Source of the DNA: Candidatus Magasanikiibacteriota bacterium
GTDB lineage: Bacteria; Patescibacteriota; Patescibacteriia; Magasanikbacterales; GWA2-37-8
DNA length: 57,422 bases
Direction: 5' to 3'
Assembly (NCBI GenBank): GCA_016189025.1
Contig: JACPGS010000004.1
Coordinates: 1-57,422, forward strand
Shown here: piece after piece, positions 27,250 to 34,797 of the stretch
How the letters are laid out: each line of letters starts with the position of its first letter
How positions within the stretch are numbered: the first letter of the stretch is position 1
Made by a program: the position numbers and the translations under genes
Notes under the pieces: generated by a model
The model's input: only the letters and a program-made list of their open reading frames with translations
Told to the model about the DNA's origin: nothing
The model's database searches: none

Positions 27250-27557
27250 CTCATGCTCTTATGACAAGCCCGACGCAGTAGCGTCGGGCTATTCCCCATC
27301 AGGGGATTGCTGGCCTTTGCTTGGCCGCCCCCTCCTCCCGGCGGGGCTATGTCCGGTTCTGTTCTTGGCCGGCTGGCTGCGCCACCGCCCTCCTTCACCT
27401 CCACCTCCGGTCAAAATCCCTGAACCGGGCTGCCATTTACGGCTGGCAGCAGCCATGGTCCGACTGCCCGGGCACCTGTTTCATGCAGATCCTCCTCGGT
27501 TTGCAGGTTAGTCTTAAGTATACTGCCAAAAACTTTTTTTTACAATGAGGCTGTAGA

Positions 27558-27761
27558 AGATCGTTGAAAAACTCGCCCACTTGTCATTCCGAGCCCATTC
27601 GACTCGCAACGCTCGCTCAGGGTAAACTCCGCCGAGAGCCTGCCCTGAGCCTGCCGAAGGGAATCCCTTGTCGCTATGTTAAGCGATTCCTCCACTCCCT
27701 CCCCCGACTTAGTCGGGGTCGGTCGGTCGGAATGACAATTAACGAAGTTTTTCAACGGTCT
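27558..27761. repeat. MITE-like family B copy with nested REP-like units
   Basis: AGATCGTTGAAAAACTC...GTTTTTCAACGGTCT ends; internal GTCATTCCG/CGGAATGAC and CCTGAGCCTGCCGAAGG units; CTGTAGA on both flanks. Confidence 0.75.
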
Positions 27762-27797
27762 ACTGTAGAAGAATGGACCGCCGCGCGCGCGGCCCAG

Positions 27798-29093
27798 CTA
27801 GGGCCGCAGGCGTCCGATGGTGCGCGGAAAAGGAATACACTCGCGGATGTGTTCCGCCCCGGCAATCCAGCGCACCACCCGCTCCAGCCCCAGGCCAAAA
27901 CCAGAGTGAGGAACAGAACCGAAACGGCGGGTATCCAGGTACCATTCGTAATCAGCCTGGTTTAATCCTTCGGATTTCATCCGCTCAATCAGCACATCAA
28001 CCCGCTCCTCGCGCTGGCTGCCGCCGACAATTTCTCCCCCGCCTTCGGTGGCGATTAAATCAGCGTTAAAAACAACATCGGGATTGTTCGGATCGCGTTT
28101 CATGTAAAATGGCTTAATCTCTTTGGGCCATTTTTCTATAAACACCGGCACCGCGCTGTTTTTAGTCAACCGCCCTTCATCATCGTTGCCCAGATCTTCG
28201 CCGTATTTGATGTCAGAACCCAGCTCATTTAGTTTTTTGATTGCCTGCTTGTAGGTATACCGCGTAAACGGCGCGTCGGCTTGGCGCAAATTATCAAGGT
28301 TGCGCTCCCGGATGGCTAATTCTTCCTGGCAATGCTCCAGGCAATAACGAATAATATGGCGCACCAGCCCTTCCTGAATTTTTAAATTCTCATCGTGCTC
28401 CACAAAGGCCGCTTCCGCATCCATCATCCAGAATTCGGTTAAATGCCGCTTGGTTTTGCTTTTTTCGGCGCGGAATACCGGGCCAAAATCATAACAGCGC
28501 CCCACGCTGGCGATCGCCGCCTCCAGGTAAAGCTGGCCGGATTGCGCCAGGTAGGCCGTGCCGAGGTCAAAGTATTCTACCGGAAAAAGCGTAGTAGTGC
28601 CCTCGCAGGCGTTGGGCGTAAAAATAGGCGTATCCAGCCGGATAAAATTCTGCTGGTGCAGATATTCGTTGACCGCCGTGGTTACGGCGTCGCGCAGGCG
28701 CAAAATCGCCCATTGCTGGCGGCTGCGCAGCCACAAGTGGCGGTGGTCCATTAGAAACTCCGGCCCGTGCTCTTTTTTAGTAATCGGGTAATCGTGAGCA
28801 AGCTGGAGAATTTGAAAATCAGTAACCTGGAGTTCGTACACTCCCTCGCGTTTGGGATGTTGGGCAACTTTCCCGGTAACACTCACCGACGATTCCTGGG
28901 TAGCTGCTTCTACCGACCGCCAAACTTCCGCCGTTACCGCCTCTTTATTAACCACCGCCGGCGTCCAGCCTGACCCGTCGCGGATTTCCAAAAACGCAAT
29001 CGGCCCAGAGGAGCGTTTATTGTACAGCCAACCTAATATGGTAACGGTGGCATTGATATGCCGCCCTAGATTACGAGCAAGCATCTGGGGCAT
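27798..29093 (-). CDS. asnS: Asparagine--tRNA ligase
   Basis: [49 protein letters not shown]. Confidence 0.96.
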
Positions 29094-29097
29094 ATTA

Positions 29098-29463
29098 TTA
29101 ACACTTGATAATTGTCAACTCGGCAACTTTGTTTAATTTTTGATCGCGGGTTACTAGGGGTGCGGAAAAGAAAAACGCGGTAGCTGCCACTACCGCATCC
29201 GGAGTCTTCAACCCGTAAACACGCCGCAAATGCGCCGCCTGACGAGCTAAAGATGAATCGAGAGGAACAGCCTGTAATTCTCCTAACCAACGAACAATCT
29301 CCAGCGTTTGTGCGCTCGTTAAGCTGGGAAAGCTAAATAATTCTACCTCGGTAATAGTCGAAATTGCTATCTGATGACGAGCTCGCAGCTTGTCGATTAC
29401 CCGAACACAACGTCGATCGTTTTGTAGATAGTAAATAACTGCATTAGTATCAAGTATGATCAT
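29098..29463 (-). CDS. PIN-domain (VapC-like) toxin
   Basis: [34 protein letters not shown]. Confidence 0.9.
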
Positions 29464-29654
29464 ACCCACTCTTTGCGCAGTCGCTGTTGCACCGTAAGAC
29501 CGCTAGGCCGTTTGGGCAGGACGCCTCTTATGCGACGCCAAATATCTTGCTTTTTAGGCAACGCTAAAACAGCAGTAACATCAAGGTCTAACCGCTGCAG
29601 CTTTTTAATTAACTGTTGATAAGGAGTAACAGTTTTAGTAATGGTAGGATACAT
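29460..29654 (-). CDS. Probable antitoxin for the adjacent PIN toxin
   Basis: 64 aa, ATGA overlap with the PIN gene, ends QRLRKEW; own TTTACA..TATAAT promoter. Confidence 0.7.
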   Translation of the reverse strand: MYPTITKTVTPYQQLIKKLQRLDLDVTAVLALPKKQDIWRRIRGVLPKRPSGLTVQQRLRKEWV

Positions 29655-29721
29655 AAAAATGGCTAATTTTATCAGTGCTTTTATTATACTACATATTGTT
29701 AAAATGTAAAGGGTCTGACCA

Positions 29722-29898
29722 AACAAAAACCCCGCCGTTTCCGGAAAGGGTTTTGTTTACCCCGCACCGTGGCCGCACGCCATAACGGGCGGACACTGGT
29801 GCGGGGCCTCGTTGGTGCCCCTCGACTGCGCTCGGGACAGGCGCCAAGTGAGATACCGGATTGGGAAAGTGTCCGGCGCACTCCGCGATCTATTGGCA
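29722..29898 (-). repeat. Structured direct repeat R1
   Basis: Shares CAAGTGAGATRCCGG..GGGAAA.TGTCCGGCGCAC and a GAAA-loop terminator-like hairpin with R2 and R3. Confidence 0.85.
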
Positions 29899-30110
29899 GC
29901 CGATCGGGAGGCTGGTGTCTTTTTACTCCAAGTAGGAGAGGAGAGCCTTGTGGGCCGCCGCGTCCCCTGCGCTCTTTTCGCCACTGGGGGTGAAGCACGA
30001 GATGATGAAGTTGTTCCATATCTCGGGGCCGGCGCAAGAAGGGGGCGAAGGGTGCAAAAAGATGGCGATGATCACTCCCTTTCTATGGAAGTGAGTTGGA
30101 AGCGCGTAGG

Positions 30111-30380
30111 CTAGCCACCAGGCCAGCCCCATCCCTCACCCTGGCTGGGCGCGGGGCGCCGCCAGCCGTCTTCCGACAGCCGCCTATCATCAACCTCGCA
30201 CGGGTCGATCTTCTCCAAGTAAACCGTCGCCACTTTCCCGCCCGCTATCGTACCCTTCACCTCGCAGAGAATGTGGCGGCTGTCCTCCCCGATCGGAAAG
30301 CACATGGTCTCCCCGACCTCCGGGAGTTTCCGCCTCTCAACACCCTTCACGTACCCCATCAGATCCAATTCTATTTTCAT
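30111..30380 (-). CDS. Hypothetical protein
   Basis: 89 aa, AAGGAGAG SD-like motif; lies downstream of the leader/attenuator. Confidence 0.6.
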   Translation of the reverse strand: MKIELDLMGYVKGVERRKLPEVGETMCFPIGEDSRHILCEVKGTIAGGKVATVYLEKIDPCEVDDRRLSEDGWRRPAPSQGEGWGWPGG

Positions 30381-30437
30381 CTCTCTCTCCTTGGAATACA
30401 GTTAAGTTTTTCCGGCTTCAGCACTATTGCCTTGGCC

Positions 30438-30610
30438 AAAAATAAAACCCCGTCTCTTTCGAGACGGGGGTAAGTTGAAAGATTTTAAAAAAATTCAACG
30501 CAACCCGCTCCCGAAAGAGAGTGAGTTGGTGTCCCAAGCCTGATTATGCTGGTTGAATAAGTTCATATACTAACAAGCAATACACTACCATTTTATGATT
30601 CTTTTGTCAA
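30438..30610 (-). promoter_or_regulatory. Promoter + 23-aa leader peptide + terminator (putative attenuator)
   Basis: TTGACA-17-TAGTGT; ORF 30566..30495 MNLFNQHNQAWDTNSLSFGSGLR*; terminator CCCCGTCTC-GAAA-GAGACGGGG-TTTTATTTTT; leader segment complementary to the terminator. Confidence 0.65.
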
Positions 30611-30626
30611 TGGAGGCATCTGTGGA

Positions 30627-30986
30627 TTACTTTTTTGCCTTGTTTTTCTGTAAGTCCCGTTCAATTTTTAAAATCTGCTTTTTTAGCCTGGGCAAATCGC
30701 GCTTAACGATTCCCCAGGTCAAAGCCATATCTACGCCAAAGTATTCGTGGATAAATTTATCGCGCGTACCGGCAATCTGCCGCCAGGGCGTCTCCGGATA
30801 ACTTTGGCGCAATGTCTCGGGAAGATGACGGACGGCTTCGCCTACAATTTCCAAACGGCGGATTACTTTATCTTGCAAAGGAACCGAGCGGACAAAATCC
30901 GCTTCGCTCTTGCCTTTGGTATAACTTTCAATTAAACGGACGCTTGCCAAAATATGCGCCAGAAAAATTTTAGGATCCTTGTCCAT
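30627..30986 (-). CDS. HEPN RNase toxin (HepT/DUF86)
   Basis: LEIVGEA, PWRQIAGTRDKFIHEYFGVD (Rx4HxY). Confidence 0.92.
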   Translation of the reverse strand: MDKDPKIFLAHILASVRLIESYTKGKSEADFVRSVPLQDKVIRRLEIVGEAVRHLPETLRQSYPETPWRQIAGTRDKFIHEYFGVDMALTWGIVKRDLPRLKKQILKIERDLQKNKAKK

Positions 30987-31269
30987 AAATAATACGTTGT
31001 TCTTTGAGAATGCGGTCGCGTAATAAAGGATGAAGCGAATTGTAAGTTACCATGTCAACCTTTCGGCCATATTGTTCCGCCAAATCTAACTCAAGCGCTA
31101 CTAAATCCAGCAGGCTTTTTTTATCCTTAAATTCGATGAGCATATCAACATCACTCGCCCTCGTCGCCTTCCCCCGAGCCATTGACCCAAACACTGCTGC
31201 CCGTTTAACACCATAGCTTTTGAAAAACGGCGAGGCAGTCTTTTTAATTTTTTGTAGGCTAGGATTCAT
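30970..31269 (-). CDS. Minimal nucleotidyltransferase antitoxin
   Basis: FGSMARGKATRASDVD, GRKVD; overlaps the HEPN gene. Confidence 0.9.
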   Translation of the reverse strand: MNPSLQKIKKTASPFFKSYGVKRAAVFGSMARGKATRASDVDMLIEFKDKKSLLDLVALELDLAEQYGRKVDMVTYNSLHPLLRDRILKEQRIIYGQGS

Positions 31270-31314
31270 ACGAGTTAAGGATACCTGTTTTAACGAAAAA
31301 AAGCAAGTCGCCGA

Positions 31315-31418
31315 TGAACAAAAACCCAACCGTTTCCGAAAGAGTTTTTTGCCTTGTTTGCGCGCAAGTTGAGATGCCGGATGGGAAAATGTCCGGCGCA
31401 CTCCGCGATCTATTGGCA
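31315..31418 (-). repeat. Structured direct repeat R2
   Basis: Homologous to R1 and R3. Confidence 0.85.
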
Positions 31419-31520
31419 AGCATTCTATCCACACCCCCCAAGTCCGTGAGATTGACTTTTTTTATAAACTATGATAATATAAGATTATCATTTAATTTAT
31501 CCTGTAATTTTAAATCAACT

Positions 31521-32663
31521 ATGTATAAAAGGTTGCAAAAATTCAAAGGTTTAGGCCAAGAAAGCTGTTTTTTGTGGGGACCTCGCCAAAGCGGCAAAAG
31601 TACTTTGCTTAAGGCATTGTTTCCCGATTCCCCTTATTATGATCTGCTTTTATCGGATGAGTTTGAACGGCTTAATCGCCGTCCGGCGCTATTGCGCGAA
31701 GAGCGGTTGGTCCGCCCCCACCGCGCCCCGGTCATTATTGACGAGGTGCAAAAAATTCCTCAACTGCTCGACGAAATCCAGTGGCTGATGGTCAATCAGA
31801 ATATCCAGTTTATCTTGTGCGGTTCCAGCGCCCGCAAGCTCAAACGCGGCGGCGGCAATCTGCTCGGCGGACGGGCCTTGCGCTACGACCTGTTTCCGCT
31901 GGTGTCGTCAGAAATCCCCAATTTTGATCTAACGAGGGCCTTGAATAATGGCCTATTGCCCCGGCACTATCAAACCGATCAACCGGCGCTGCGGCACCGA
32001 TCATATATCGGGGATTACCTGAAAGAAGAAATTGCGGCCGAAGCGCTTACCCGAAACCTGCCGGCTTTTGCCAAATTTCTGGAGGCAGCCGCTTTTAGCA
32101 ATGGCGCCGTAGTGAATTTTACCAATATCGCGCGGGAATGCGGCGTCAGCGTGCCTACCGCCAAAGAATATTTTCAAATTTTAGTTGATACGCTGGTGGC
32201 GCGTTTTGTTCCTTCGTTCCAAAAAAAGGCAAAGCGGCGGGTCATTCAAGCGCCCAAATTTTATCTGTTTGATATCGGCATCGCCAACGCTCTGCTCAAG
32301 AGAGGGGCCATTGTTCCGGGAAACGAAATGTTCGGGCGTGCTTTTGAACAATTTATTTGGCAAGAGATCGTTGCGCATAGCCATTATTCGGGCTTGGAGT
32401 ATCCGATTGCTTACTGGCGGACCGCGTCTGGATTGGAAGTAGATTTTATTCTCGGCGATCGAGAGGTCGCTCTGGAAGTAAAAGGCGTGACCGAGGTGCA
32501 TTCGCATCAGGTGCGCGGCGTCCATGCCTTTCGCGCGGAGCACCAGCCCAGAAAAACGATCGTTGTTTCGCTGGACGCCAGGCCCAGAAATATGAACGGC
32601 ATTAGCATTATGCCCTGGGATATCTTTCTTAGGGATTTATGGTCAGGCTCGGTAATTACTTGA
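31521..32663 (+). CDS. AAA ATPase with C-terminal DUF4143-type domain
   Basis: GPRQSGKST, IIDEVQK, CGSSARKL, KFYLFDIG, YWRT..GLEVDFI, LEVK. Confidence 0.88.
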   Translation: MYKRLQKFKGLGQESCFLWGPRQSGKSTLLKALFPDSPYYDLLLSDEFERLNRRPALLREERLVRPHRAPVIIDEVQKIPQLLDEIQWLMVNQNIQFILCGSSARKLKRGGGNLLGGRALRYDLFPLVSSEIPNFDLTRALNNGLLPRHYQTDQPALRHRSYIGDYLKEEIAAEALTRNLPAFAKFLEAAAFSNGAVVNFTNIARECGVSVPTAKEYFQILVDTLVARFVPSFQKKAKRRVIQAPKFYLFDIGIANALLKRGAIVPGNEMFGRAFEQFIWQEIVAHSHYSGLEYPIAYWRTASGLEVDFILGDREVALEVKGVTEVHSHQVRGVHAFRAEHQPRKTIVVSLDARPRNMNGISIMPWDIFLRDLWSGSVIT

Positions 32664-32684
32664 ATTAAATTTTGATTTGTACGG

Positions 32685-32796
32685 TGAACAAAAAACCCCG
32701 CCGTTTCCGGAAAGGTTTTTTGCCTGGTTGGTGCCCCTCGACTGCGCTCGGGACAGGCACCAAGTGAGATGCCGGTTGGGAAAGTGTCCGGCGCAC
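32685..32796 (-). repeat. Structured direct repeat R3
   Basis: Homologous to R1 and R2; begins a few nt after the recO stop. Confidence 0.85.
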
Positions 32797-32803
32797 CTCT
32801 GTT

Positions 32804-33550
32804 TTATTTGTTCTCGCCCAACATTTTATCCGCATCCTGCCAGGCGGGAAAGACAACGCCGGTGTGATATGCCGCGTAGGCGTAAGTGAGATTATTAAGG
32901 GTCGTAAAATCTTTTTTGGCTAACGATAGCTGAAAAATTACACTCCAAGAACCGGCTAAAAATAATTTGAGGACAGCGACTAAATGACCGGTGAGAGAAA
33001 AAATTTGATCTCCCTCCGGAATATCCGGAACAGCGGAAACGCCGGCGCTAACTATGCCGCCCTGGGAAACGCTAAAAATAGTAGCCGTGGTTTTACTGGC
33101 AGCAGCGCCGGTCAAATCGGGCCGAAAACCCAGCTGGTCAAGCAGCCGCCAAACCAAAGCAAGGATTCCGGTTGCCTCTGGTTTGCTTGCCCGCTCCAGC
33201 GCGATTAACCACTCCTCAAGCAATTTAAATAAAGCGGGCTGTTTTTCTCCCACGTGCGTCAGCCGATCAATCAAATGTATTGCCCGCTGCGCCTGCCAGC
33301 TTTTAATTAAATCCGAACGCAAACCAGGGAATAACGCCAGGGGCTGGGCCGTAGCCAGGTAATCAATCTCACGCCCGGGCACAATTTCCACTGCCGAGAG
33401 CGACGCCGGTTCCAGCGCGCCGGCATTTTTGGCAATAATTTTTTTTATTCCCCGCGCCAGCACTTCACGCTTGCCCGACTCTGCCGTGTAGAGTGAAACT
33501 ACTTGATCGTATTCACGAAAGTTGCGGCGAGAGAGAACGATAGCGAGCAT
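32804..33550 (-). CDS. recO: DNA repair protein RecO
   Basis: AIVLSRRNFREYDQVVSLYT..GK..LARG N-terminal OB fold, LGFRP. Confidence 0.88.
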   Translation of the reverse strand: MLAIVLSRRNFREYDQVVSLYTAESGKREVLARGIKKIIAKNAGALEPASLSAVEIVPGREIDYLATAQPLALFPGLRSDLIKSWQAQRAIHLIDRLTHVGEKQPALFKLLEEWLIALERASKPEATGILALVWRLLDQLGFRPDLTGAAASKTTATIFSVSQGGIVSAGVSAVPDIPEGDQIFSLTGHLVAVLKLFLAGSWSVIFQLSLAKKDFTTLNNLTYAYAAYHTGVVFPAWQDADKMLGENK

Positions 33551-33559
33551 AGGTGACAC

Positions 33560-33946
33560 TCACTTATTTCTCTCTAAATACCCTTCTAAAATCGCCGTGG
33601 CCGCCAGCTCATCGCGGCTGACGTCCGATCGCGCCAGGCGATCGGCTAATTGCGAAGTAAAACGCTCGTCAAATAATTCTACCGGGATGTTAAGCGCTTT
33701 CTGCAAAGTAAAAGCAAATTGTTTTACCCGGTCGGTGTTGCGGTTTTCCTGGCCATCGAGACCCAGCGGAAACCCGACTATCACCTTCCCAATGCTTTCG
33801 TTGACAATCAGCTCCTGGATTTCTTTGAGCGGCGCGGCGGCCGTCTGTTTGGCAATTACCCCGAACGGCAGCACGGCCGAGAGAGTAGTATCGGCCCAGG
33901 CCAGCCCGATTCGTTTGGTGCCGTAATCAATCCCCAGCAATTTCAT
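33560..33946 (-). CDS. ruvX: YqgF/RuvX pre-16S rRNA nuclease
   Basis: LGIDYGTKRIGLA, VGFP, DERFTS, AATAILE. Confidence 0.93.
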   Translation of the reverse strand: MKLLGIDYGTKRIGLAWADTTLSAVLPFGVIAKQTAAAPLKEIQELIVNESIGKVIVGFPLGLDGQENRNTDRVKQFAFTLQKALNIPVELFDERFTSQLADRLARSDVSRDELAATAILEGYLERNK

Positions 33947-34797
33947 AATTTGGATTCATCCGGTCTCCGGGTCGCTACGACATTCCCCTGCTCGGTAATT
34001 ATCACCGTGTGCTCAAAATGCGCGCACAACGAATGATCGGCGGTCTTAATCGTCCACCCGTCGGGGAGCGTGGCTACCGCCAAGCCGCCTAGGGAAATCA
34101 TCGGCTCAATGGCAATTACCATCCCCGGCTTGAGGATAATACCTTCCAGGGCGCGATCATAATAATTGGGGATATAGGGTTCTTCGTGTACCGCGTGCCC
34201 TACTCCGTGACCCACCAAATCGCGAATAATGCCGTAATTGCCCTGCGCTTTAACATAGGTTTCCACCGCTTTACCGATCGCCGCCACACTATTCCCGGGT
34301 TGCGCTGCCTTAATACCCTCTGCCAGCGCTGCCCGCGTTACCGCCATCAGTTTGCTGACTGCCGGCTTCGCTTTCCCGACGCTTACGGTAATTGCCGTAT
34401 CGGTAAACACTCCTCCATCGCTTTTCCCTTTTCCCCCTTCGGCCTTGCTCAGGGCAAGCTTTCTCCTTTTTCCTTGATACGGCCACTCCATCCCGATATC
34501 CAAGCTCACCAGGTCGCCGCTTTTAAGCACGCGGCTATGGCGGGGAATGCCGTGCACCAGTTCCTCATTGAGGGAAACGCACAGCGTGGCAGGAAAAGGA
34601 TAGGAAGCGTGAACCGTTTCGTATCCTTTGAAAGCGGGGCGCCCGCCGGCCTCCCGCACCAAGGTTTCTGCCAGCTGATCCAGCTCCCAGGTAGAAACGC
34701 CCGGGGTGCAGCGCTTGACCAGAGTGGCAAGAATTTGACCAAGCAGAGCGCCGCTCCGTTTGATATTTTTAAGATCGCGAGGGGATTTAATTAACAC
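33943..34797 (-). CDS. map: Methionine aminopeptidase type I
   Basis: CVSLNEELVHGIP, GHGVG..HEEP, AIEPM, AHFEHT; short in-frame insertion. Confidence 0.95.
   Translation of the reverse strand: MLIKSPRDLKNIKRSGALLGQILATLVKRCTPGVSTWELDQLAETLVREAGGRPAFKGYETVHASYPFPATLCVSLNEELVHGIPRHSRVLKSGDLVSLDIGMEWPYQGKRRKLALSKAEGGKGKSDGGVFTDTAITVSVGKAKPAVSKLMAVTRAALAEGIKAAQPGNSVAAIGKAVETYVKAQGNYGIIRDLVGHGVGHAVHEEPYIPNYYDRALEGIILKPGMVIAIEPMISLGGLAVATLPDGWTIKTADHSLCAHFEHTVIITEQGNVVATRRPDESKL

Follow-up and report, generated by a model that had tools for sequence, protein, structure and literature searches.

In integrons, small accessory units are arrayed between structured repeats, the attC sites, whose core sites follow the consensus R'' = RYYYAAC and R' = GTTRRRY; the Vibrio VCR arrays and attC clusters that lack an integrase are useful cases for comparison. 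Modules also lie between repeated sites after tandem att-site accretion of integrative elements and in the Xer-dependent dif modules of Acinetobacter plasmids, and phage morons are units of promoter, open reading frame (ORF) and terminator between conserved genes. Among structured RNAs, the preQ1-I aptamer is a small H-type pseudoknot. Here, we describe R, a structured repeat present in three copies (R1, R2 and R3) between recO and asnS on contig JACPGS010000004.1 of a Candidatus Magasanikiibacteriota bacterium. The window that we analyzed is this entire contig (C2; 57,422 nt), which belongs to a 1.22-Mb genome in 34 contigs (G000). Judging from sequence comparison, R appears to be a new, well-supported structured motif with a terminator that is tied to accessory-gene exchange in a family of the candidate phyla radiation (CPR). 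We favor, with moderate confidence, the reading that R is a module of RNA 3' ends and at the same time serves as an anchor for recombination, by which toxin-antitoxin and defense-like units are stacked.

Like an integron attC array, the locus has structured repeats of ~100 nt between small accessory units, including toxin-antitoxin modules with their own promoters, and no recombinase is adjacent. In contrast with attC sites, R has no R''/R' boxes and ends in a terminator T-run, there are only three copies here, and the locus has no IntI, attI or common promoter. The R''/R' core-site pair was found on one strand in none of the three copies when each was searched with ~30 nt of flank (the pair occurs by chance in 10 of 2000 random 200-nt windows), in agreement with the initial annotation, which had identified no attC boxes. 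Rather than the single long, imperfect hairpin with extrahelical bases of an attC site, R consists of five helices and lacks a single bulged hairpin. The same annotation had reported no adjacent integrase, and no tyrosine recombinase (PF00589) is encoded anywhere on the 57-kb contig; none adjoins the other R copies of the genome either. The three PF00589 genes of the genome are on contigs C31, C33 and C27 only. One of them (C31:2033-2866, L121; 277 aa) matched the integron-integrase model TIGR02249 at 241.9 bits in two stretches, below the cut-off of 265, and the XerA/integron-integrase model at 235.8 bits, above the cut-off of 220. R behaves as cassette boundaries do, yet it is not an attC site.

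The other systems resemble the locus in part. Att-site accretion and dif modules likewise involve modules that are often toxin-antitoxin pairs, a recombinase encoded elsewhere and mosaic site copies, but R has no evident short inverted arms around a 6-8 nt spacer and instead has an RNA-like fold and a terminator. Phage morons are also self-contained units with their own promoter and terminator between conserved neighbors, whereas the terminator here is one conserved, family-wide structured element and not an arbitrary hairpin. With intrinsic terminators that have structured 3' untranslated regions (UTRs), including those that give rise to 3'-UTR-derived small RNAs, R shares a GC-rich hairpin and T-run behind a co-oriented ORF, and with the bidirectional terminators of convergent genes it shares an A-run and a T-run that flank the stem. 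R differs from such terminators in having a conserved pseudoknot, linker and second hairpin upstream, in occurring in at least 26 genera behind unrelated genes, and in coinciding with gene-content breakpoints. Finally, R resembles preQ1-I-type pseudoknots in its helices of 3-5 and 5-6 pairs, 1-nt first loop and A-rich third loop, although it has no Rfam match at E≤10, is located 3' of genes rather than in a 5' leader, and has no evident switching platform.

Structure of R and its three copies in the window

Alignment and a 20-nt core search placed the three co-oriented repeats where the initial annotation had reported them. The core has exactly three matches in the 57,422 nt, all on the minus strand, where 0.03 matches are expected and 0 of 100 shuffles gave three. 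R3 (32682..32800, minus strand) is a full element that starts 7 nt past the recO stop codon and scores 136.4 bits with a covariance model built from six copies. R2 (31312..31418, minus strand; 90.2 bits) is the shortest copy, with a minimal P2 hairpin, no insert and a 17-nt 5' extension. R1 (29716..29902, minus strand; 114.7 bits) is the longest, comprising the 17-nt extension, the pseudoknot, P2 with an insert, a terminator stem (29730-29746) and the T-run, as well as an additional GC-rich hairpin, P3, between P2 and the A-run region. R1 and R3 are 94.7% identical over 76 nt and 96.7% identical over 30 nt, R1 and R2 are 91.7% identical over 60 nt including the 5' extension, and R2 and R3 are 91.9% identical over 37 nt. 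Since R1 and R2 share the 5' extension, which is absent from R3, while R1 and R3 share the insert and terminator stem, which are absent from R2, the three copies are mosaics of one another, with R1 resembling R2 in its 5' part and R3 in its 3' part.

Read on the minus strand, R begins with an H-type pseudoknot, followed by a conserved linker, the P2 hairpin, a short conserved purine-rich stretch just before an A-run, a variable hairpin and a T-run. In the pseudoknot, a helix of 3-5 pairs encloses a loop whose bases form the 5' strand of the second helix (5-6 pairs); the first loop is 1 nt long, and the third, A-rich loop is ~8 nt. Together with P2 and the two-part terminator stem, the pseudoknot pair makes up the five helices. 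These parts can be followed in R3, where the pseudoknot (~32771-32797) is succeeded by the linker, P2 with an inserted hairpin repeat (~32727-32764), the A-run, the terminator stem (32696-32712) and the T-run. What had initially been annotated as a bulged hairpin is better described as an H-type pseudoknot; the pseudoknot helix pairs in 82.1% of cells across 36 copies. The variable middle of that annotation is indeed variable, with an insert in the P2 loop of R1 and R3 and an extra hairpin in R1, but the middle is itself a second hairpin, P2. The proposed GAAA-loop terminator-like hairpin was borne out by a terminator scan, which detected the R1 and R3 stems with their T-run.

Covariation was assessed in these 36 copies, which match at E≤2e-6, after the pseudoknot helix had been added by hand. 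Standard pairs occupy 89.7% of 954 cells, compared with 43.7-52.9% when the partners are slid by 1-3 columns. Two-sided changes occur at 25 of 31 pairs, and 0 of 500 shuffles matched the observed value on any of five measures, although related sequences inflate these shuffle tests. The pseudoknot helix is absent from the model that made the alignment, so its pairing was not fitted, and compensatory changes are present at 4/4 of its pairs. Among family copies, conservation is higher in the pseudoknot loops and in the linker than in the helices. All 36 copies end in a variable stem and T-run, and the A-run, hairpin and T-run constitute an intrinsic terminator of probably bidirectional design. 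Taken together, the 36 copies and the covariation in all five helices, pseudoknot included, suggest that R is a well-supported candidate for a new RNA motif.

The minus strand is taken as the reading strand because several G-U pairs (e.g. nine U-G at one P2 position) and the T-run mark it and because R folds better there. The R3 fold reaches -49.7 kcal/mol (z -2.66) on the minus strand compared with -46.6 kcal/mol (z -1.68) on the other strand, and R1 folds on the minus strand at -88 kcal/mol (z -3.65). An Rfam 15 scan of the window yielded three tRNAs only at the gathering score and nothing on R, even at E≤10, so that the suggestion of a possibly undescribed repeat holds for this discrete structured unit. 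A tRNA or tmRNA origin of R was rejected, as none lies near the repeats.

A separate hairpin repeat of ~25 nt is dispersed in the genome and in several relatives, at times inside ORFs. It was located at 29806-29867 and 32722-32783 of the window, at C28:19165-19188 and C22:49928-49960 elsewhere in the genome, and in three loci (L005, L007 and L008). A variant of this repeat is nested in the P2 loop of R1, of R3 and of an R copy on contig C10.

Distribution, placement and a breakpoint at the 5' edge of R

Five strong copies were recovered when the genome was scanned with the covariance model (136.4, 114.7, 92.6, 90.2 and 78.8 bits), and the next match scored 22.6 bits; the two strong copies beyond the window, on contigs C10 and C28, were found with both BLAST and the covariance model. 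A divergent sixth copy (C10:12180-12292, 20.8 bits) has the full architecture by inspection, with a different, compensated pseudoknot helix. Among 100 Candidatus Magasanikbacteria genomes, 43, in 26 of 41 genera, have a match at E≤1e-3, and ~20 have matches below 1e-8, with 1-4 copies each. The scan of this genome and its relatives, which the initial annotation had proposed, reveals a low-copy family that is not confined to the recO-asnS locus. R is neither scattered genome-wide (5 strong copies) nor a match to a known family, the two outcomes named beforehand as speaking against the proposal. An exact 33-position pattern searched in all GTDB species representatives occurs at eight places, six of them in Magasanikbacteria-titled records. 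The other two (L095 and L099) are in metagenome bins titled Bdellovibrionales and Gammaproteobacteria, for which mis-binning or transfer is possible.

In this genome, R1, R2, R3 and the C28 copy form one subtype, and some subtypes are common to different genera. Concerted evolution of all R copies within a genome was rejected as a general rule, since several genomes hold different subtypes. A listing-level look at the literature on Magasanikbacteria integrons, CPR attC cassettes, Patescibacteria TrmB and genomic islands, and CPR structured RNAs and terminators produced no description of R.

R is located behind genes. A co-oriented ORF of at least 50 aa ends ≤150 nt upstream in 33 of the 36 copies (≤71 nt in 32), the exceptions being R2, one contig-edge copy and one copy with a DDE transposase gene in front. 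A fixed spacing from stop codon to pseudoknot, as for translational coupling or read-through, was rejected, since the gap varies between -8 and 131 nt. R closes accessory gene units, and the most frequent slot across the family consists of a divergent TrmB-like regulator, one variable gene and R: such a regulator gene lies 481-1250 nt upstream in 14/36 copies, with the variable gene or genes between it and R. The slot genes are mutually unrelated, encoding radical SAM, DUF3865 and RNA-polymerase-alpha-CTD-like proteins and many proteins without a family. This genome has approximately eight TrmB-like genes (250-310 aa), three of which have R or a divergent R behind the neighboring gene and none of which is at the recO-asnS locus. 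Genes downstream of R are often convergent. This is the case at R3, on which recO and the ATPase gene converge and whose terminator may serve both. AbiEii-type toxin-antitoxin pairs are situated directly beside R at L001:4145-5058 (G000 C10) and L068:472-1354 (G091); with these two further loci, toxin-antitoxin modules beside R are recurrent.

A gene-content breakpoint at the edge of the repeat, of the kind that the initial annotation had proposed to seek in recO-asnS intervals, was observed in genomes G050 and G074, two members of one genus that share R together with the gene on its right. In each locus, the homologous DNA (75.9% over 1587 nt) begins with position 1505, the first base of the pseudoknot, at the 5' edge of R. 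Different genes lie in front of R, encoding a 335-aa radical SAM protein in G050 and a 193-aa protein without an assigned family in G074, the TrmB-like regulators of the pair are only 23% identical, and a further 7-9 kb to the left of R is non-syntenic. Identity between the two copies of R is ~95% and extends to the terminator stem, which otherwise varies. Because R matches through the terminator stem while the left side differs, R is resident and the unit in front has been exchanged. The variable island to the left of R in both genomes (L088:5940-8000 in G050 and L089:5740-8480 in G074) contains tRNA genes and several repeated fragments of tRNA 3' ends, a pattern usually left by recurrent integration at a tRNA gene.

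The recO-asnS interval and its modules

The interval is bounded by two conserved flanks on the minus strand, recO on the left (32804..33559; Pfam RecO_N and RecO_C) and asnS on the right (27798..29093; Pfam tRNA-synt_2). The inserted block of 3.7 kb fills the whole intergenic space, with 7 nt left over at recO and 4 nt at asnS. The gene content reported initially, namely an ATPase module, an MNT-HEPN module with an orphan ORF and an antitoxin-PIN module, was borne out by Pfam. The AAA_14/DUF4143 ATPase gene (31521..32663) is on the plus strand, convergent on R3, and its product matches PADLOC PDC-S01 (7.2e-52). On the minus strand follow the genes for the MNT nucleotidyltransferase (30970..31272; Pfam Polbeta and NTP_transf_2, PADLOC PDC-S09), which is the antitoxin of the MNT-HepT pair, and for the HepT (HEPN) ribonuclease toxin (30627..30986; Pfam HepT-like, 2.3e-25). 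PDC-S01 and PDC-S09 are candidate defense families in PADLOC. A second HepT/MNT allele, ~10% different over 30643-31128, is present on short contigs of runs X2 and X4 and comes from another strain or organism in the same aquifer.

The gap between hepT and the next gene, orf89, contains an extra GAAA-loop terminator (30448..30469, minus strand), which is 70% like the R terminators and lacks a pseudoknot and P2. The GC-rich orphan ORF orf89 (30111..30380, minus strand) has a strong Shine-Dalgarno sequence and no Pfam match; its islet has a GC content of 0.60-0.65, compared with 0.40-0.45 for the toxin-antitoxin modules. No homolog was found in the 99 other family genomes. That orf89 is a fragment of a known gene was rejected on a search restricted to proteins of near lengths in a set of 5.8 billion, which returned only orf89 itself. 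The 220 nt between orf89 and R1 hold broken frames only. Beyond R1, an antitoxin-sized ORF (29460..29654, minus strand; 64 aa from ATG, no Pfam match) overlaps the start of the gene for a PIN-domain toxin (29098..29469, minus strand; Pfam PIN, 1.1e-17), whose stop is 4 nt before the asnS start.

The claim that each module has its own promoter held for two of the three. Directly after R1, the antitoxin-PIN module has a strong promoter-like site (29683-29710) with 11 of 12 consensus positions, and the ATPase gene has one at 31452-31480 with 9 of 12 positions and an extended TG. For MNT-HepT, a promoter scan found no site between R2 and the operon; its sole candidate (9/12) is ~65 nt upstream of R2, on R2's own strand. 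R2, which has no ORF upstream on its own strand and is placed between the divergent ATPase promoter region and MNT-HepT, may be a free-standing transcript or the leader of MNT-HepT.

The order map-ruvX-recO-asnS is conserved in 29 relatives, and the interval comparison proposed initially shows the recO-asnS distance to vary from ~35 nt to 9.0 kb. In 18 of the 29, asnS lies within the ~1.5 kb fetched after recO, several gaps being ~35-150 nt as judged from tblastn ends. Larger gaps were found in G069 (~7.6 kb), G053 (9.0 kb), G058 (3.4 kb), G063 (2.9 kb), G007 (2.8 kb) and G013 (1.8 kb); G041 has no asnS within 12 kb of recO, and in two further relatives the contig or fetched stretch ends before asnS. 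The recO-asnS interval is an insertion hotspot in Magasanikbacteria. R is inside the interval in only one of the 29, G069 (75.5 bits), so R3 arrived with the inserted block and is not ancestral. The G069 cargo comprises two RelE/ParE-type toxin-antitoxin pairs, an insertion sequence (rve), a GIY-YIG gene and an ABC ATPase, and the G053 interval holds a pseudoknot-only remnant behind an AstE/AspA-like gene. In both genomes, a stand-alone 94-aa GIY-YIG gene lies shortly after R or the R remnant (L045:2891-3175 in G069, L047:1961-2245 in G053). Just past recO in G053, ~350 nt within L047:300-700 are GC-rich and resemble structured RNA, with many hairpins, the dispersed hairpin repeat and an end terminator, and have no Rfam match at the gathering score.

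Cassette gain or loss was also sought in metagenomic data. A metagenome scan with RecO gave four loci that are ≤50% identical, none of them a close relative suited to an indel test. Four public DNA runs of one groundwater study, two of which may be its source, contain the stretch, and no RNA run is listed as containing it. Over 27500-34500, the contigs of these four runs end where R1 and R3 have the same sequence (29813-29840 and 32729-32756). None of the contigs skips a cassette by joining its two R boundaries; for the few joints listed, the sides are 20-33 nt long with a likeness <95 and look like repeats of other organisms. The circular cassette junctions proposed in the initial annotation were thus not seen in these runs, nor was a cassette-less form, and the contigs speak neither for nor against cassette polymorphism or circles. 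Near the asnS 3' end, public contigs have a 4-nt deletion at 27695 relative to the window and break at ~27630-27700. A 38-nt inverted repeat (27555-27592 and 27727-27764, 79% complementary) is located just past this end.

Proposed role of R and competing explanations

If R both forms RNA 3' ends and anchors recombination, it would be transcribed on the strand of the gene in front, and the 3.7-kb block would have been stacked from three units: the ATPase, MNT-HepT with the decayed orphan gene, and antitoxin-PIN. Incoming DNA would recombine at R, a ~100-nt sequence common to resident and incoming DNA. A single crossover in R would integrate a circle in a Campbell-type event, with a copy of R at either end as the outcome; two crossovers, one of them anchored in R, would replace the unit in front in a homology-facilitated manner; and gene conversion after integration would give rise to mosaic copies. 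Crossovers between incoming and resident R could account for four features, namely R at the seams, the left arm common to R1 and R2, the mosaic right parts and the absence of an adjacent recombinase. We infer transcription, terminator activity, a role for the pseudoknot and the recombination mechanism from these comparisons. Of the two possibilities raised initially, a recombination site or a mobile 3'-UTR/terminator unit, the second fits the data better than the first. The broader proposal of a repeat-delimited gene-capture array agrees with the data as regards the terminator-ended unit, accessory modules, variable site and breakpoint, but we found no evidence for a dedicated integron-like recombination system.

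Several observations weigh against an RNA 3'-end module that recombines by homology. The same four-feature pattern is also expected from a site-specific enzyme acting in trans, and an exact breakpoint at the 5' edge is expected of a site-specific site, whereas homologous recombination would more often break inside R. Between G050 and G074, R is more conserved (~95%) than the flanking gene (76%), as would be expected of a site for recombination or for binding a protein or ligand no less than of an RNA stability element. Because a terminator needs no conserved pseudoknot and linker, R would do more than terminate. R2 has no ORF in front and R1 only broken frames, so that both copies on which the array is defined are unusual as 3' UTRs, and the R2 fold is no better than that of shuffled sequence (z -0.30). 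With regard to the covariation, four of the five helices (2-5) were fitted to the model, six alignment rows are the model's own training sequences, and covariation alone fits folded RNA and folded single-stranded DNA alike.

It is unlikely that R is instead the cis site of a dedicated gene-capture system, in which a recombinase encoded elsewhere would recognize the folded element, in single-stranded DNA or in another form, and insert or excise units at the R 5' edge. On this account, itself an improbable one, the recO-asnS array would represent a new type of cassette array, small and lacking an integrase, with units made up of a regulator and a gene or of a toxin-antitoxin or defense module, each insulated after capture by the terminator. 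The exact G050/G074 breakpoint is consistent with such a system, and the three R copies at module seams with no recombinase nearby recall attC clusters without an integrase, although R1-R3 contain no R''/R' pair. The 17-nt left arm common to R1 and R2, whose right parts differ, is reminiscent of tandem att sites, but the multi-helix pseudoknot fold and terminator T-run are an RNA signature that a DNA site would not need. While the genome does encode the IntI/XerA-like tyrosine recombinase on C31 (241.9 bits against the cut-off of 265), no recombinase is found on the 57-kb contig or beside other copies. Insertion sequences adjoin the R 5' side in G069 and G020; most genomes, however, have 1-4 dispersed copies and no arrays, and the units here carry their own promoters, one unit being inverted.

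Slightly less probable again is the possibility that R is itself a regulatory RNA, either a small RNA (stand-alone or derived from a 3' UTR) or a pseudoknot that binds a ligand or protein, with its clustering a by-product of duplication. The stronger conservation of pseudoknot loops and linker than of helices would favor this, as would the TrmB-like regulator beside 14/36 copies if it reflects a protein partner, and the 1-nt first loop and A-rich third loop have the geometry of small aptamer pseudoknots. The promoter-like site upstream of R2, with no ORF in front, could give a free transcript of ~165 nt. A classical riboswitch platform is nonetheless unlikely because the terminator stems vary freely in sequence and have no conserved complement in the aptamer-like part, leaving no conserved alternative pairing between pseudoknot and terminator; that the downstream genes are often convergent also argues against regulation of this kind. 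We regard it as very unlikely that R is a selfish miniature mobile repeat targeting gene ends, similar to miniature inverted-repeat transposable elements (MITEs), repetitive extragenic palindromes (REPs) or RPEs. Its dispersed copies in many genera, some of subtypes common to several, and the truly dispersed hairpin repeat that occupies the P2 loop in R1, R3 and the copy on C10 are compatible with mobility. Yet a genome has no more than 5-6 copies, neither terminal inverted repeats nor target duplications were observed, the orientation is always that of the upstream gene, and R is orthologous in G050 and G074 down to the terminator stem. Features of MITEs and REPs are also lacking in this genome, where R has unrelated flanks and 5 strong copies in 1.22 Mb.

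The tiny genomes of CPR bacteria contain few recognizable mobile elements, yet a survey ascribes up to 13% of genome length to horizontal transfer (PMC12455944). If the gene-capture explanation were true, R would be the recognition site of an undescribed gene-exchange system of these ultra-small bacteria. As an element at accessory-gene exchange points, R provides a concrete handle on how CPR bacteria acquire and insulate foreign genes, and, even read conservatively, it is a useful annotation marker of accessory-gene boundaries in Magasanikbacteria.

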